Positions 16,083-48,252 of a DNA stretch of 64,000 nt are shown here, in pieces. Source of the DNA: Eledone cirrhosa (taxonomy: Eukaryota); the NCBI GenBank assembly GCA_964016885.1, contig OZ024741.1, positions 343,914,001 to 343,978,000 on the forward strand. The letters are read 5' to 3'. The notes below the pieces were generated by a model, which did not search any database, was not told where the DNA came from, and saw only the letters and a program-made list of their open reading frames with translations. Position 1 is the first letter of the stretch; each line of letters begins with the position of its first letter. Position numbers and translations under genes: made by a program.

Positions 16083-16127
16083 AATATTGGACTAGTTTCG
16101 ATGTTGTTACATCTCATCAGCAATATT
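16083..16127 (-). ncRNA. Canonical minimal type I HHR with extended stem I
   Basis: aatattg-CTGATGA-gatgt aaca acatc-GAAA-C TA G-TC-caatatt. Stem I extends via 16051-16078 pairing with 16136-16156. Confidence 0.92.
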
Positions 16128-16253
16128 TACCCATCCTCCGGCCCCTCTAGAGAATCGTAAAAGCACATATCGTTATATGCTTTTTCTATGAAAATTAGTA
16201 GTGGGCAGACTAATTTGCATAGAGCGTGAGTACGTACCGGTTCAGCGGAAGCG

Positions 16254-16498
16254 ATAAAAACAAATAACGAAACGAAATTAAATTTCGTTTCGTTTGTAAC
16301 TCACTTTTGTATGACTGACGCTTAAACAATTAAGTTAGAAGTGTACATCCACATATGTATACTGAAATACTAGTATGCATATAAATACACACACACGTAT
16401 ACATATGTGGATGTACACTTCTAACTTAATTGTTTAAGCGTCAGTCATACAAAAGTGAGTTACAAACGAAACGAAATTTAATTTCGTTTCGTTATTTG

Positions 16499-16505
<7 letters not shown>
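16254..16505. repeat. Fold-back inverted repeat
   Basis: 16254-16360 is the reverse complement of 16398-16505. 15860-15945 is a direct copy of the centre. Confidence 0.85.
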
Positions 16506-16542
<37 letters not shown>

Positions 16543-16675
16543 ATAGCCGTCGCGTTCTGACTTTTTTATATAATCATACACTACTATTCTAAATATTGAG
16601 TATTCTATTGAGTAATGATTTAATTAGTTTTAAACTGGTTATATCCTAATTTATATATATATATATATATATAAG

Positions 16676-17572
<897 letters not shown>

Positions 17573-19420: not shown

Positions 19421-19511
<91 letters not shown>

Positions 19512-19745
19512 TATGCATGTATACGTACATACATATATGTATACAGACGTACAGTAGCACGCACATATATATATATATATACATATATATATACATATGC
19601 ATACAGGTACACATACATATATGCACGTATCAGTTTAGAGGCGCTAACGTCGCTTTGTTCGTTTGTAAACAAACTGAACAGCCTGAATTTATGCCATACG
19701 GTGTTAAGGCAACCACGTCACCTTTTTGTTCAACACTGACACAGG

Positions 19746-19790
19746 AACGATGTACTAGTTTCAAGCTTGTTAGCTATCATCAGCACCGTT
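19746..19790 (-). ncRNA. Array HHR, representative unit
   Basis: aacggtg-CTGATGA-tagctaacaagctt-GAAA-CTAG-TA-catcgtt. Predicted cleavage after GUA, between 19753 and 19752. Confidence 0.93.
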
Positions 19791-19818
19791 TACCCATCTG
19801 CCAGATAGTTGAACGTTC

Positions 19819-19871
19819 GAAAGTATATACTTTCCTTATGAAAATTAACGGCTGAGCAGCCTAATTTGCAT
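19819..19871 (-). promoter_or_regulatory. Putative octamer-dyad plus TATA promoter module, repeated in each unit
   Basis: Minus strand ATGCAAATTAGGCTG-ct-CAGCCGTTAATTTTCAT, then GAAAGTATATACTTTC about 30 nt before the HHR. Also conserved at 16165-16220 and 46740-46795. Confidence 0.55.
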
Positions 19872-20030
19872 ATTGAGTGAGTTAAATCGGTCAGGCATAC
19901 CGAAAACGATAAATTGAAACAAAATGAAAACGAAATTTCATTTCTCACTCTTAGTATGGCACTTACCTAAATGTAAGTATGCATGTATACGTACATACAT
20001 ATATGTATACAGACGTACAGTAGCACGCAC

Positions 20031-20061
<31 letters not shown>

Positions 20062-22365
20062 CATATGCATACAGGTACACATACATATATGCACGTATCA
20101 GTTTAGCGGCGCTAACGTCGCTTTGTTCGTTTGTAAACAAACTGAACAGCCTGAATTTATGCCATACGGTGTTAAGGCAACCACGTCACCTTTTTGTTCA
20201 AGACTGACACAGGAACGATGTACTAGTTTCAAGCTTGTTAGCTATCATCAGCACCGTTTACCCATCTGCCAGATAGTTGAACGTTCGAAAGTATATACTT
20301 TCCTTATGAAAATTAACGGCTGAGCAGCCTAATTTGCATATTGAGTGAGTTAAATCGGTCAGGCATACCGAAAACGATAAATTGAAACAAAATGAAAACG
20401 AAATTTCATTTCTCACTCTTAGTATGGCACTTACTTAAATGTAAGTATGCATGTATACGTACATACATATATGTATACAGACGTACAGTAGCACGCACAT
20501 ATATATATATATATACATATATATATACATATGCATACAGGTACACATACATATATGCACGTATCAGTTTAGCGGCGCAAACGTCGCTTTGTTCGTTTGT
20601 AAACAAACTGAACAGCCTGAATTTATGCCATACGGTGTTAAGGCAACCACGTCACCTTTTTGTTCAACACTGACACAGGAACGATGTACTAGTTTCAAGC
20701 TTGTTAGCTATCATCAGCACCGTTTACCCATCTGCCAGATAGTTGAACGTTCGAAAGTATATACTTTCCTTATGAAAATTAAAGGCTGAGCAGCCTAATT
20801 TGCATATTGAGTGAGTTAAATCGGTCAGGCATACCGAAAACGATAAATTGAAACAAAATGAAAACGAAATTTCATTTCTCACTCTTAGTATGGCACTTAC
20901 CTAAATGTAAGTATGCATGTATACGTACATACATATATGTATACAGACGTACAGTAGCACGCACATATATATATATATATACATATATATATACATATGC
21001 ATACAGGTACACATACATATATGCACGTATCAGTTTAGCGGCGCTAACGTCGCTTTGTTCGTTTGTAAACAAACTGAACAGCCTGAATTTATGCCATACG
21101 GTGTTAAGGCAACCACGTCACCTTTTTGTTCAACACTGACACAGGAACGGTGTACTAGTTTCAAGCTTGTTAGCTATCATCAGCACCGTTTACCCATCTG
21201 CCAGATAGTTGAACGTTCGAAAGTATATACTTTCCTTATGAAAATTAACGGCTGAGCAGCCTAATTTGCATATTGAGTGAGTTAAATCGGTCAGGCATAC
21301 CGAAAACGATAAATTGAAACAAAATGAAAACGAAATTTCATTTCTCACTCTTAGTATGGCACTTACTTAAATGTAAGTATGCATGTATACGTACATACAT
21401 ATATGTATACAGACGTACAGTAGCACGCACATATATATATATATATACATATATATATACATATGCATACAGGTACACATACATATATGCACGTATCAGT
21501 TTAGCGGCGCAAACGTCGCTTTGTTCGTTTGTAAACAAACTGAACAGCCTGAATTTATGCCATACGGTGTTAAGGCAACCACGTCACCTTTTTGTTCAAC
21601 ACTGACACAGGAACGATGTACTAGTTTCAAGCTTGTTAGCTATCATCAGCACCGTTTACCCATCTGCCAGATAGTTGAACGTTCGAAAGTATATACTTTC
21701 CTTATGAAAATTAAAGGCTGAGCAGCCTAATTTGCATATTGAGTGAGTTAAATCGGTCAGGCATACCGAAAACGATAAATTGAAACAAAATGAAAACGAA
21801 ATTTCATTTCTCACTCTTAGTATGGCACTTACCTAAATGTAAGTATGCATGTATACGTACATACATATATGTATACAGACGTACAGTAGCACGCACATAT
21901 ATATATATATATACATATATATATACATATGCATACAGGTACACATACATATATGCACGTATCAGTTTAGCGGCGCTAACGTCGCTTTGTTCGTTTGTAA
22001 ACAAACTGAACAGCCTGAATTTATGCCATACGGTGTTAAGGCAACCACGTCACCTTTTTGTTCAACACTGACACAGGAACGGTGTACTAGTTTCAAGCTT
22101 GTTAGCTATCATCAGCACCGTTTACCCATCTGCCAGATAGTTGAAGGTTCGAAAGTATATACTTTCGAACCTTCAACTATCTGGCAGATGGGTAAACGGT
22201 GCTGATGATAGCTAACAAGCTTGAAACTAGTACACCGTTCCTGTGTCAGTGTTGAACAAAAAGGTGACGTGGTTGCCTTAACACCGTATGCATAAATTCA
22301 GGCTGTTCAGTTTGTTTACAAACGATCAAAGCGACGTTAGCGCCGCTAAACTGATACGTGCATAT

Positions 22366-22565
22366 NNNNNNNNNNNNNNNNNNNNNNNNNNNNNNNNNNN
22401 NNNNNNNNNNNNNNNNNNNNNNNNNNNNNNNNNNNNNNNNNNNNNNNNNNNNNNNNNNNNNNNNNNNNNNNNNNNNNNNNNNNNNNNNNNNNNNNNNNNN
22501 NNNNNNNNNNNNNNNNNNNNNNNNNNNNNNNNNNNNNNNNNNNNNNNNNNNNNNNNNNNNNNNNN
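22366..22565. other. Assembly gap (200 N)
   Basis: Run of N. Confidence 1.
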
Positions 22566-30176: not shown

Positions 30177-32855
30177 AAGATGAATATAAAATGAAAGTGC
30201 TTTTATAAAGGAATTTATTAGGTATTGACATATCTTTCTGTAACAGACGGAATACCTATGTATCGCTGCTTGCGTAATCATATAATGTTAGCAAGTATTC
30301 GATAGCAAATGTATAATCAGTTGTCACTTCTTCAGAGATATTGGATAAATTGGAAAAAATCAGAAAAATCAAAGTATTTATATTAGTTGTAAGAAAGGAA
30401 GAAGAGAAGGGATAGTATATGACAGGTGGCAATTCAATTTGCTGGTAAACAAGTATATAGAAGGTTTTTAATGAGAATACAATGAGTATATGGCTTATTT
30501 TATCTAAATAAGAATTTTTGGGAGTGCCTATTATAATCTATATTTGACCAAGGGACAGGACTGGTCGTTTGGTGTAGTAGTATTAATACAGTTATAAAGT
30601 GTCAAGTAAGGAAGAGAGAGATTTTCACTGATACTGTATACTAACAATGCTGGTAGCCTGCTGGTATATGCATTAGGAAATTGAAATAAGAAATCTCATT
30701 TTATCTATAGCAGTTTATATTAAATGGTAAATAATAGAAGAGTTCATAGAATTAAGACTAGTAGAGAATGTTAATATGTATTTTGACAATCAAACGGAGA
30801 TGGAGACAGGCGTTCAATCCTGGTAGTGTTTGTAATATGAAAATGTAGATTTCAAGCGATGGTTACAGTATAACGATCGCTCTATTTTGTTATTTAATAA
30901 AATATTTTTGGATTTCATAATACAAAATATTTCCATATTACACAATTTACAAAATTCCTATCCTGGATATTATGCAGGGGCATGAACTATTATATCCCAT
31001 TTTAGGTTAAATTGTTGGTTATTTTCGCGCAGCTGCCAAGCCTTGTCTGCGAGTGTTGTTACATAACACTGGTTTTCATGTTTTATCGAGTAACGATGTC
31101 TATAAAGGCGAGATTTGAAGGAGGCAGCTGTAGACCCCACATAGTACCACTTCTGGCTACCCGATTCGATAGTACATTTGTATATGATGTTGCGTTCAAG
31201 ACACTGATTGTTCAACGGACACATTCCTGGTTGAACACAGTTACAGTTATAATTATGCGTTGTTGTATTACCATGGCTGGGTTGATGAGGTTGCTTAGGC
31301 AGGACGGGATGTTGTTTTGTGATGTTATAGCCGATGTTTTCCGTGTATTGTTATGTGTTGGAAGGCGTTTATACAACCGTTTTGCGTTAAGCTTTTTTAT
31401 ATGTTGTTCAATATGAGGGGCGATTGAATATGAAAGTCGAATAGTGTTAGGGTTTAAGATTTTATTATATTTATGTGATGTTGGAAAATGTTTTTTAACT
31501 AATCGAAAGAATTGTGAGGGTAAATTGGTTTTAATAGAGTTGTTATAGACCGGGTTGTACCATATATACTCTTTACATCGCCTTCTGTTTGGTGGTGTGC
31601 GACTATTAGTGTGTCTATTGCGGTAGTGTATGTATGGTGGTGATTCTATGCTATTTCTACCTCTATGAGATTTATTTTAGGTGTTTTGGTGATCGTCGAC
31701 TCTATACTCTATATTATCTAGGTGTCCAGCCTTCCTAGAGTGCATCATCATAATATTCGGCATGTTCTTTGAAGGTTTGCTGGTTGGACGACAGGCGGGA
31801 GATTCTAAGGGAAATATTTCTAGGGATGGATTTAATTATAGAGGGTGGATGGTTAGAACCCGTATTTACATATTTAAGGTTCTCATTTAGTTTATGGAAA
31901 GGTTTAATTGTTTCTGTATTGAGATTCAAAGTAACATCAAGGAAATTAACCTCTTTGAGGTTATATTCAAACGTAATATTTAATCCTAGTTCCTTATAAA
32001 GCTTTCTAATATTTTTACGCATCCTTTCTAAATTCTGGTTATTCATATGCTTAACTAATAGGAGCGCATCGTCACGGTAGAGTCCACCGTGGCGATCCTT
32101 GCATTTTCCTTGTAGTCTGTGGGTGATATAAATTCCCACAAGATCAGTTACTTCCGCCGAATCATTGGAACCCATAGTTATATCAAAATTAGGTCTATCT
32201 TTGCGAACCCATTAGCTATTATCAAATTTAACAATAGTTTTCCTCGCTTCCATAATAATACTAATTTCATCATCCGTAAGGTCGGAGTTAGCCTTAGCGA
32301 ACGAAAGGGCTTCATGCAGAGTATCAGGTGAGATTGAGGTATAATACTCATCAATATCGAACTGAATAAATTTTGATTTCTTCTTATCAGTAATGCTATT
32401 AAACCATCTTATTGCCTCATGGGTGTTACCCCATAGTTTAATATCTACTTTAGCCTTAACTTGGGGGATAATTCTGTCTAATATATATTGGCTAATTTTG
32501 CTTGTATCAGATTTAGAGGGGCATATAAGTCTAATTTTAGAATCAGTATCGAACTTTACTTTATGGTCCTTCAGGTTGAAGGATGGTATAGCTGGTGTTA
32601 AGGGTTGCGTTCTATCGTCAATACAAAGTTTTTTTAACAATTTTACATGCCGAGTTGTTGATGTTTCTAAGTGTAGCTTCATTAGTTTTCTTGTATTTTT
32701 TATGCAATTCCTTACGGATGAAGTTATTGTAAGTGTCCACATCCATGGTATATACGTTTGATGTTTTGTCTGCTCTAACAATAATTCCATTGGCGTTTAT
32801 TAGATTATTGAGCAGTGCCGTGATGTCATTCTGTAGTTTATTGTTTTTCCGTTTT
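30175..32855 (-). mobile_element. Penelope-like element 3 (same clade as PLE2), 5'-truncated
   Basis: RT and GIY-YIG remnant, 3' UTR, degenerate long-stem-II HHR (30221-30340), AATAAA, and (TA)n on both sides. Confidence 0.9.
30850..32850 (-). pseudogene. PLE3 RT and GIY-YIG, disrupted
   Basis: ADKTSNVY; LKDHK; IRLICPSKSD; FIQFDIDEYYTSIS; MGSNDSAEVTDLVG; GGLYRDD; CPLNNQCLERNIIY...YVGST; CKLCNME. In-frame TAA at 32212. Confidence 0.92.
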
Positions 32856-38147: not shown

Positions 38148-38218
38148 CCTGTTACACGTATTTCGAAGATGTCAGAGTGGTTGCTTAATAACCCGTTGAC
38201 GCGTTCTCTTCAGACAGG
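38148..38218 (-). ncRNA. Type I HHR
   Basis: cctgt-CTGAAGA-gaacgcgtca...tgacatcttc-GAAA-T ACGT G-TA-acagg, followed by AATAAA. Confidence 0.82.
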
Positions 38219-45459: not shown

Positions 45460-45519
45460 TAAATTTGCTTTCGCTCTAACATAGCGGATAAGACTCACGA
45501 ATGCATATATATATATAAT

Positions 45520-46105
45520 AAATGTAATCTGAGTTTATGGAATATTAATAACATTCGATTCGTTTGCAATTATGCAAACAAACCTCAATTTTATCGCCAT
45601 GTCAGTACAATGAACACTTCATTCTTGCTCTTGTGTTGGCATGCGAACACAACTGCAGACACTAATGTTTCTGGGTATCACCCTTCATCAGTACAGCTCA
45701 CTGTTCACATGTCAAACTGTCAGAGCTAGTGAAAGTATATACTATTTTCAAAAATTCACAGTGACTGGACGGCCTGATTTGCATATTAGCAGACTGGCTG
45801 ATCAGTCAGATCTGCATATTAGCAGATCCACTGATCAGCCATATTTGCATATCAGTCACTGTGTATTTTTGAAAGTAGCATATATTTTCACTAGCTCAGA
45901 CAGTTTGGCAGGTGACCAGTGAGCTGTACTGATGAAGGGTGATACCTAGAAACATTAGTGTCTGCAGTTCTCTTCACATGCCAACACAAGGGCAAGAATA
46001 AAGTGTTCATTCTACTGACATGGCTATAAAATTGAGGCTTGTTTGCATAATTGCAAACGAATCGAATGTTATTATTATTATTCGAAAAACTTAGATTACA
46101 TTTAT
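45520..46105. mobile_element. Fold-back element with two divergent intact HHRs and central octamer repeats
   Basis: HHRs at 45651-45698 (minus) and 45921-45970 (plus): gagctgta-CTGATGA-agggtgataccta-GAAA-CATTAGTG-TC-tgcagttc. ATTTGCAT at 45777 and 45843, ATCTGCAT at 45810. Confidence 0.85.
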
Positions 46106-46235
46106 TGTATTCAGCCATGTAGAGCGAAATTTTCTTTTATATATATATATATATTCATATATAAGTTATTCCGGGTTGAATCAGGGGTAACCACAGTAAG
46201 GTACTCAATACATAGGAGAGTATAAAAGTGTTAAT

Positions 46236-46454: not shown

Positions 46455-47075
46455 GATGAAACGAAATTTCATTTCTCACTCTTAGTACAGCTTGTATTTA
46501 AATGTAACTATGTATGTATACGTACATACATATATTTATACAGACTTACGGTAGTATGTATATATATATACATACATGCACACATATATATATATATATA
46601 TATGTACGTATGGGTTTACCGACCATTTATTATAATGCTTGGTTTGTTTGTAAGAGTACTAAGAGTGAGAAATGAAATTTCGTTTCATTCTTTTCCATTC
46701 ATTTATCGTTTTCGGTGCGCCCGGCCGACTAACTCACTCGATATGCAAATTAGGCTGCTCAGCCGTTAATATGCATAAGGAAAGTATATACTTTCAGACG
46801 TTCAACCATCTGACAGAAAGGTATACAGTACTGACGAAAGCTAATAAGCTTGATACAATACATCGTTCCCTTGTCAGTGTTGAACAAAAAGGTGACGATG
46901 GTTGCCTGAACACTGTACGGCGTAATTCGGGCTGTTTGTTGTTTACAAACAAACCGAGCATTATAATAAATGTTCGGTAAACCCATACGTACATATATAT
47001 GTGTGCATGTATGTATATATATACATACTACTGTACGACTGTACACATATATGTATGTACGTATACATACATACT

Positions 47076-47080
<5 letters not shown>
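46455..47080. mobile_element. Diverged inverted pair of the 466-bp HHR family
   Basis: Same octamer dyad and TATA palindrome; degenerate HHR (CTGACGA...GATAC) at ~46825-46868; AATAAA at ~46965. Confidence 0.85.
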
Positions 47081-47116
<36 letters not shown>

Positions 47117-47211
47117 GCATATATGTAGAGGTTATATTTAATTTGTTGGGATACAACAAGCTAAATATTTTTATAACTGATATAAAGCACTCAACAAATT
47201 ATTGGAGTAAA

Positions 47212-47516
47212 TATACAATATATTAACAAATGGAAACTATATTTATCAAACCATATTTATTTCATTATACATATTTCAAGGGCCACCAGAGCAAACTATG
47301 GTGCGCTTTCATTAGATAAAATATAATATCCAGGAGATTCCAACCAGAATGGTTGCATTTGTTAAGGGTATGTCAATATTTATTTATAAAACTAACCTAT
47401 ATTATATTTTATCTGATGAAAGCGCACCATAGTTTGCTCTGGTGGCCCTTGAAATATGTATAATGAAATAAATATGGTTTTATAAATATAGTTTCCATTT
47501 GTTAATATATTGTATA
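47212..47516. mobile_element. Fold-back element with HHR (47407-47468 plus; mutated mirror 47260-47321 minus)
   Basis: ttttat-CTGATGA-aagcgcacca...tggtggccctt-GAAA-T ATGT A-TA-atgaaa, then AATAAA. Confidence 0.8.
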
Positions 47517-47623
47517 TGCATATATATATATATATATTATACATATATATATAGTGCACCTTTATCCCCTCCTCTTACTCGCTCTTGCCCTCTCCCCCCC
47601 TCGCTCTCTCTCTCTCTCTCTCT

Positions 47624-48252
<629 letters not shown>

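Follow-up and report, generated by a model that had tools for sequence, protein, structure and literature searches.

The alternation of unit types seen in a hammerhead-bearing tandem array of the window (the whole stretch of 64,000 nucleotides analysed here) comes down to a single two-unit block that occurs in two copies, preceded by two non-conforming units, and this arrangement probably arose by local duplication after the array had been inserted. Tandem Repeats Finder delimits 5.7 copies of a 466-bp unit (GC about 36%) at 19508–22166, which is one unit more on the left than in the preliminary description, where the array was placed at 19960..22150. Alignment of the six units reveals eight variable features, among them the three linked sites on which that description relied: site 1 (TTACCTAA/TTACTTAA) reads C, T, C, T and C at 19967, 20435, 20901, 21367 and 21833, site 2 (GCGCTAAC/GCGCAAAC) reads T, A, T, A and T at 20113, 20579, 21045, 21511 and 21977, and site 3 (AATTAACGG/AATTAAAGG) reads C, A, C and A at 20317, 20783, 21249 and 21715. 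The linkage stands as it was given, but the strict A/B alternation drawn from it does not extend over the array. The extra leftmost unit is A-type at both sites within its span (19645 T, 19849 C), the order of units is A-A-B-A′-B-A′ with two B units only, and the A units are themselves unlike, the first full A unit lacking the stem I change of the later ones and carrying a private G at 20202 and an AT insertion at 20049–50. That stem I change, a G-U pair replaced by G-C, is present at 21150 and 22082 as had been reported (21146 and 22078 are the motif starts). The 932-bp higher-order dimer is correct as to its period, 20219–21213 being identical to 21151–22145 over 995 bp with 0 mismatches (the longest exact run at an offset of 466 is 143 bp), and not as to its extent, a single block being repeated once. 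Four substitutions recur at exactly 932 bp, and the pattern is therefore more than chance. Relative to the usual state of the family, A units are marked by one derived base and B units by two. The features of the array are collected in Table 1.

Table 1. Features of the array and its flanks (window coordinates; M0 to M5, monomers in RNA order between predicted cut sites).
Feature	Position	Strand	Details
(TA)n microsatellite, likely insertion target of the array	19423..19507	.	family 3′ ends adjoin (TA)n in the examples inspected
Tandem array, 5.7 x 466 bp	19508..22166	-	RNA sense minus; 3′ end at 19508 of the '~250' class
First-copied part, partial M0 and monomer M1 (468 nt), non-conforming to the block	19508..20220	-	private changes 19639, 20049-50, 20202; only shared block marker, C at 19967
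Predicted hammerhead	19746..19790	-	cut 19752/19753; stem I G-U
Predicted hammerhead	20214..20258	-	cut 20220/20221; G-U; Rfam Hammerhead_HH9 18.5 bits, cut-off 52
Block copy 1 (M2+M3)	20221..21152	-	markers 20579 A, 20783 A, 20901 C, 21150 G
Predicted hammerhead	20680..20724	-	cut 20686/20687; G-U
Predicted hammerhead	21146..21190	-	cut 21152/21153; stem I G-C variant (21150)
Block copy 2 (M4+M5), identical	21153..22084	-	markers 21511 A, 21715 A, 21833 C, 22082 G; two-unit distances 0, 0
Predicted hammerhead	21612..21656	-	cut 21618/21619; G-U
Predicted hammerhead	22078..22122	-	cut 22084/22085; stem I G-C variant (22082)
16-bp palindrome of the unit, fold-back centre	22151..22166	.	same symmetric junction at unrelated locus L073
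Inverted arm, ends at assembly gap	22167..22365	+	mirrors 21951-22150 with two differences
Seventh predicted hammerhead, in inverted arm	22195-22239	+	G-C variant
200-N assembly gap, hides remainder of inverted arm	22366..22565	.	

Read in RNA order, M5 equals M3 and M4 equals M2 exactly, and M1 differs from M3 by three substitutions and the AT indel. The reference monomer was taken from L133+34, a flawless 12-monomer sister insertion with no variable site, against which M3 and M5 hold three changes of their own, M2 and M4 one, and M1 one of M3's three changes plus two private ones. One of the block alleles is lacking in M0 and two in M1, such that three of the four are absent from the two together. 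Private changes number 3 in the 713 nt of M0–M1 versus 1 in the 1,946 nt of the rest (rough post hoc Poisson p = 0.003), with none in M2–M5, and the C at 19967/20901/21833 alternates across all five full monomers. Reverse transcription round one dimeric circle, which had been proposed as the origin of the pattern, does not fit such a record, as it would require three reversions in M0–M1 together with an uneven spread of private changes; at the window it is unsupported because the first-copied units lack three of the four block alleles and hold three of the four private changes. The DNA-level duplication (unequal crossover) that had been named beside it fits the window better. At the far end of the array, the inverted arm has the changes at 22082 and 22146 in common with the adjacent unit. 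An artefactual origin of the fold-back was ruled out by 60 divergent junctions in 172 loci and by the identical symmetric junction in L073. Open reading frames of at least 120 aa over the array comprise only microsatellite read-throughs or frames running into the gap.

Each unit carries on the minus strand a predicted minimal type I hammerhead motif, in the order stem I, CUGAUGA, stem II (4 bp, with U.U at its base), GAAA, the ACUAGU palindrome of stem III, and UA before the cut. The six motifs are identical across the 45 nt preceding the predicted cut. The short palindromic stem III and the double-hammerhead fold of the preliminary description are both recovered in the predictions, the double fold being no more than 1.0 kcal/mol from the free minimum and more stable than two single hammerheads by 16 kcal/mol in 5/5 neighbouring pairs, with like and unlike pairs folding equally well. 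The G-C variant, predicted to stabilise one stem I by about 2.6–2.7 kcal/mol, is the only change within the ribozyme, and the three A/B sites lie outside it. The A/B alternation has no predicted effect on cleavage, and the link once drawn between alternation and double-hammerhead chemistry is weak because the ribozymes are identical and like and unlike pairs are equally predicted to fold. The U.U below stem II may reduce hammerhead activity; on account of it, a strict hammerhead pattern, which does not admit U.U at that place, returned only other hammerhead-like motifs and not those of the array. Rfam gave 0 matches in the window at gathering thresholds, and relaxing the limit to E ≤ 10 added nothing but HH9 below its threshold and miRNA look-alikes from the TA hairpin. 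The predicted monomer fold is stable (z −9.1), partly owing to the TA hairpin. The six RNA sequencing runs listed each contain at most 0.07 of the words of the stretch, and 14 sequencing runs from 11 organisms contain 0.26–0.74.

The exact 48-nt ribozyme core has 8,135 matches in the 3.0-Gb genome, in dispersed copies that range from monomers to multimers, with arms of 0–31 complete monomers and a unit of 455–600 bp that holds a TA microsatellite. This unit is short, below 50% GC and devoid of LTR, PBS and ORF, and the family belongs to the class of animal non-LTR retrozymes. Its properties were assessed on a non-random sample of 172 loci. Among the subset of loci examined for their ends, 165 of 186 mapped RNA 3′ ends cluster in two bins of 20 nt, chiefly at positions 251 and 310 of the monomer, and these two fixed ends, 59 nt apart, run directly into (TA)n in the examples inspected. 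Opposite-strand neighbours in the same subset meet in 47 divergent versus 3 convergent junctions. Both ends were mapped in 43 of 49 divergent loci and lie at fixed sites in 37, and 36 of these 37 double-arm loci combine one ~250 end with one ~310 end (binomial p = 3e-10). The array of the window terminates at the 250-class site. We infer two primings per insertion, and the family is likely spread by Penelope-type retrotransposons (PLEs). PLE-like protein matches were obtained in 37 of 210 sequences, with no match lying a fixed distance behind the cut site. The one PLE family examined (781-aa open frames; L251–L297) yielded no autonomous partner with the same unit, as it has no hammerhead at a constant place before the ORF and no pLTR match to the unit among the BLAST matches listed.

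The window contains several further elements. An older double-arm insertion of the family at 16671–17568 (~90% identical) has TA tracts at both ends and a 36-bp duplication at its junction near 17031–17107, and a third, more diverged copy (~79%) with an inverted piece lies at 46459–47077. A related hammerhead repeat occupies 15860–16505, with its own fold-back at 16254–16505 and a minus-strand motif at 16120 that has CUAG and AACA loops as in the family and stems I and II of different sequence. Other motifs resembling type I hammerheads and having palindromic stem III loops lie at 45929, 47413 and 47781 (+) and at 38213 (-), several of them inside long inverted repeats (45513–46110, 47211–47517, 47627–48174). 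Broken Penelope-like RT/GIY-YIG fragments, with Pfam GIY-YIG below the cut-off, lie at 2502–3912 (+), 9676–10932 (-) and 30970–32796 (-), the last of them from a family whose 781-aa open frames are numerous and nearly identical, some of them being paired in tandem or divergently. Finally, 13840–14255 and 15346–15752 form a 416-bp inverted repeat pair (94%) around ~1.1 kb of unrelated sequence, with an adjoining TA tract.

Alternating (ABAB) arrays were found at other loci as well, so the concern voiced in the preliminary description, that the pattern might be unique to this one, falls away; the variable sites of these arrays differ from those of the window. Loci were drawn from the first 100 listed core matches and from rare-variant searches, multi-hit arrays being kept whatever their spacing (a non-random sample). 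In a separate search seeded with rare words, 20202 G stood in the best-matching unit of most loci, which was taken as a selection effect of the seeding and left aside. The lag test covered 42 arms with at least four monomers, the window and the segmental duplicate L235 having been dropped. Of note for the latter, L234 and L235 (C14:25.09 and 25.39 Mb) are near-identical 10-monomer arrays 300 kb apart, either a segmental duplicate or a false duplication, and were counted once. A shared variant is present in 30 of the 42 arms and none in 12. Across the 30, the mean relative distance at lags 1 to 6 was 1.11, 0.80, 1.08, 1.02, 1.03 and 0.98, and lag 2 beat lag 1 in 18 arms and lost in 11 (permutation p = 0.0005; p = 0.011 when the 7 arms retrieved as multi-hits of variants of the window are excluded, and p = 0.004 without L091+92, the insertion at C4:72.04 Mb). 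The best lag was 1 in 5 arms, 2 in 11, 3 in 6, 4 in 2, 5 in 1 and 6 in 5, and linked pairs give a milder picture (36/339 at lag 1, 49/297 at lag 2, 21/255 at lag 3). In this sample the two-unit bias is thus real but small, blocks of other lengths being common as well. Duplicated blocks of 3, 4 and 6 units are present in further arrays, so block duplication at the DNA level does occur in the family. Long older arrays (L085–L087, C3:356463000–356490000; L094, C2:379.86 Mb) contain near-exact six-unit duplications (distances 0–2) set among diverged monomers. Higher-order satellite repeats, such as alpha-satellite dimers, consist of a block of diverged monomers repeated at higher identity than that between neighbouring monomers. 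The family resembles them in its blocks of 2, 3, 4 and 6 units, but its arrays are short (2–30 units), dispersed, and begin as retrotransposed insertions, and the window has two block copies.

The second arm of an insertion was used as a control, under the assumption that it was primed on the same RNA as the first. On the long arm of L177 the markers give M2 = M4 and M3 = M5 and are absent from the first-copied units; the second arm covers the same three sites in 2–3 units each and shows no alternating alleles, with private changes on each arm. L089, L093 and L138 agree with this pattern at lesser coverage, and L183, which has no second arm, shares the non-conforming 3′ end of L177. Including L177 and L183, the first-copied end is non-conforming in four other short period-2 arrays (L089, L093, L177, L183). 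Judged by the order of their variants, L177, L089, L093, L138 and L183 read as duplication after insertion, and the layout of the window appears the same. Differences do, in other loci, occur on both arms: in L078+79 and L103 at offsets of one unit and of four or five units, respectively, which makes the same-molecule assumption unsafe, and in L091+92 in phase. The arms of L078+79 (C1:69578000–69587000) have in common a unit type of 458 nt and a single substitution, with an offset of one monomer between the arms, and a three-unit pattern runs for two rounds, which suggests a mixed multimeric template.

The clearest alternation occurs in L091+92 (C4:72039700–72048600), an (AB)7.5 array from end to end. 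Its 15 monomers alternate at 5 sites with one exception in 75 cells, its five private changes are all unshared, and both of its ends, at 251 and 310, lie in TA tracts. The short arm, read from its own 3′ end, is B-A-B in phase. The RNA template of this insertion is likely to have alternated, and a dimer circle is the simplest explanation, the alternatives being a long linear (AB)n transcript from a donor that has since been lost, or expansion of a B-A-B seed at the DNA level. A genome search with one marker revealed no donor, and the microsatellite lengths of the A units (478, 482, 478, 482, 488, 478, 482, 478) hint at a four-unit substructure. We tentatively raise the possibility that the family sometimes retrotransposes from two-unit RNA circles, in which case the reverse transcriptase may have rolled ~7.5 times round one 950-nt circle at L091+92 while a second primer copied that circle from 59 nt away. 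Were this so, L091+92 would supply direct evidence, from a genome, for the model of a rolling circular template that has long been advanced for retrozymes and PLE tandems, and copying from two-unit circles would have left partial traces in the repeated block of the window and in the two-unit bias across the family.

For the window itself we favour local duplication after insertion as the probable source of the A/B pattern. A Penelope-like enzyme would have nicked both strands of the TA tract, two cDNAs would have been primed on a multimeric or circular RNA at its two fixed internal sites, and these cDNAs would have been joined back to back, here via the 16-nt palindrome. M0–M3 each stand 1–3 changes from the family's young master type, a divergence that would precede the last step, an unequal exchange or slippage in two-unit register by which M2+M3 would have been copied into M4+M5. 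The C common to M1, M3 and M5 may derive from an earlier two-unit event or from a template that already alternated at that site. Consistent with local duplication, exact identity is confined to the two copies of a single block, and the four markers of the window (19, 62, 6 and 17 exact genome matches) do not co-occur, even two at a time, at any other locus, so that no donor or sibling was found in the assembly. The explanation needs only one recent event, in addition to an account of the C at 19967/20901/21833 and the copying of two changes across the palindrome. This last is its main weakness, as the inverted arm has both the G-C variant and the 22146 change of the adjacent unit; should the arm represent a separate cDNA, the template already carried the G-C variant. 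It also counts against local duplication that duplicating one unit ought to be no harder than duplicating two and yet two-unit linked pairs are more frequent, that template-borne differences lie on both arms in L091+92, L078+79 and L103, and that the array, known as assembled sequence only, lies at the end of a contig.

Were the block made during reverse transcription, M0–M3 would have been copied from the transcript of a diverged donor, with subsequent re-entry into the M2+M3 RNA, either as a 932-nt circle or as a cut dimer reached by a template jump, and all markers would come from the template. In this form the dimeric circle of the preliminary description is compatible with the sequence. 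Such an origin would accommodate the G-C variant of the arm and the absence of private changes from M2–M5, and it draws on the alternating templates that likely exist at C4:72.04 Mb and on the two-unit excess across the family (p = 0.0005). The exact period also begins at 20219, two bases from the predicted cut 20220/20221, but the breakpoint may lie anywhere in the 360-bp interval 20219–20578, so its closeness to the cut site is uninformative and its phase was dropped as evidence. We consider such an origin rather unlikely, as it requires a template switch and a donor that is absent from the assembly, the other arm shows no alternating alleles in L177 and L089, the RNA runs contain at most 0.07 of the words of the stretch, and a dimer circle with two ribozymes would be predicted to form a double hammerhead and cut itself, in line with the view, in the accessible part of PMC4209133, that the dimer requirement protects monomer circles and not dimer circles. 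Assembly error, by false duplication or haplotype merge at a contig end beside a long palindrome, would explain a 995-bp match without mismatch in an array that ends 200 bp before a gap, and the two differences of the arm do lie near the contig end. It is nonetheless improbable, given that the gap-free arrays L177 and L183 have the same layout with later private changes, that L073 has the same fold-back junction, and that M1 is a third type and not either of two haplotypes. Least probable is that the unit types are selected functional partners, for example strong-stem and weak-stem ribozymes whose one-sided cutting releases dimers. The G-C change provides the predicted gain in stem I (about 2.6–2.7 kcal/mol), occurs at 62 places in the genome, and falls at even unit spacing in four non-mirror multi-hit cases (the window and three arrays); against this, none of the three A/B sites falls within the ribozyme, the variable sites of other alternating arrays are different ones, the markers of the window are private to the locus, and 12 of 42 arrays have no shared variant.

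The family agrees with the animal non-LTR retrozymes, as far as the accessible text of PMC7229834 describes them, in its non-coding tandem units with one type I hammerhead each, GC <50%, and thousands of copies from monomers to multimers, and with the axolotl retrozymes in a short helix III that is predicted to need dimers (PMC7229834; bioRxiv 10.64898/2026.07.22.740005, available in part). It departs from them in its unit of 455–600 bp, at or above the range of 150–450 bp given in the accessible parts of these two sources, in the TA microsatellite within the unit, and in being known from DNA only. The available portion of the bioRxiv report also records that 8/9 Xenopus dimers failed to cleave, and argues that non-LTR retrozymes represent non-autonomous PLE derivatives with local expansion by unequal crossover. 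Neither alternating unit types nor inverted arms are described in the accessible parts of the two sources, and no account of alternating hammerhead-array units or of a two-arm reading of the template was found in a literature coverage that excludes most subscription papers and supplements. Likenesses to the PLEs are equally evident. PLE pLTR hammerheads share the small palindromic helix III (PMC4209133, in the part available), and PLE anatomy, in the accessible text of PMC8557442, combines tandem copies with an inverted 5′-truncated copy, a tail at one end only, and AT-rich or (TA)n targets, as seen in the family. The family differs from PLEs in lacking an ORF and in a tail of 59 nt versus 30–40 bp. 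For the anole element PAc, two internal reverse-transcription start sites and the cutting and extension of both strands are reported in vitro (PMC11167929, as far as available), comparable to the two start sites and two-strand priming that the ends of the family suggest. The one-end-of-each rule (36/37) is here put in numbers for the family.

At its own coordinates, the pattern of the window would be an ordinary two-unit duplication in a retrozyme-type array, and its value lies in the family. The arm-end rule of the family would correspond in vivo to what the anole element shows in vitro, namely two start sites and priming on both strands. The order of variants on two arms separates template-borne differences from later DNA differences, which renders the unproven circular-template model testable from genomes, and one locus, at C4:72.04 Mb, likely already displays an alternating template.
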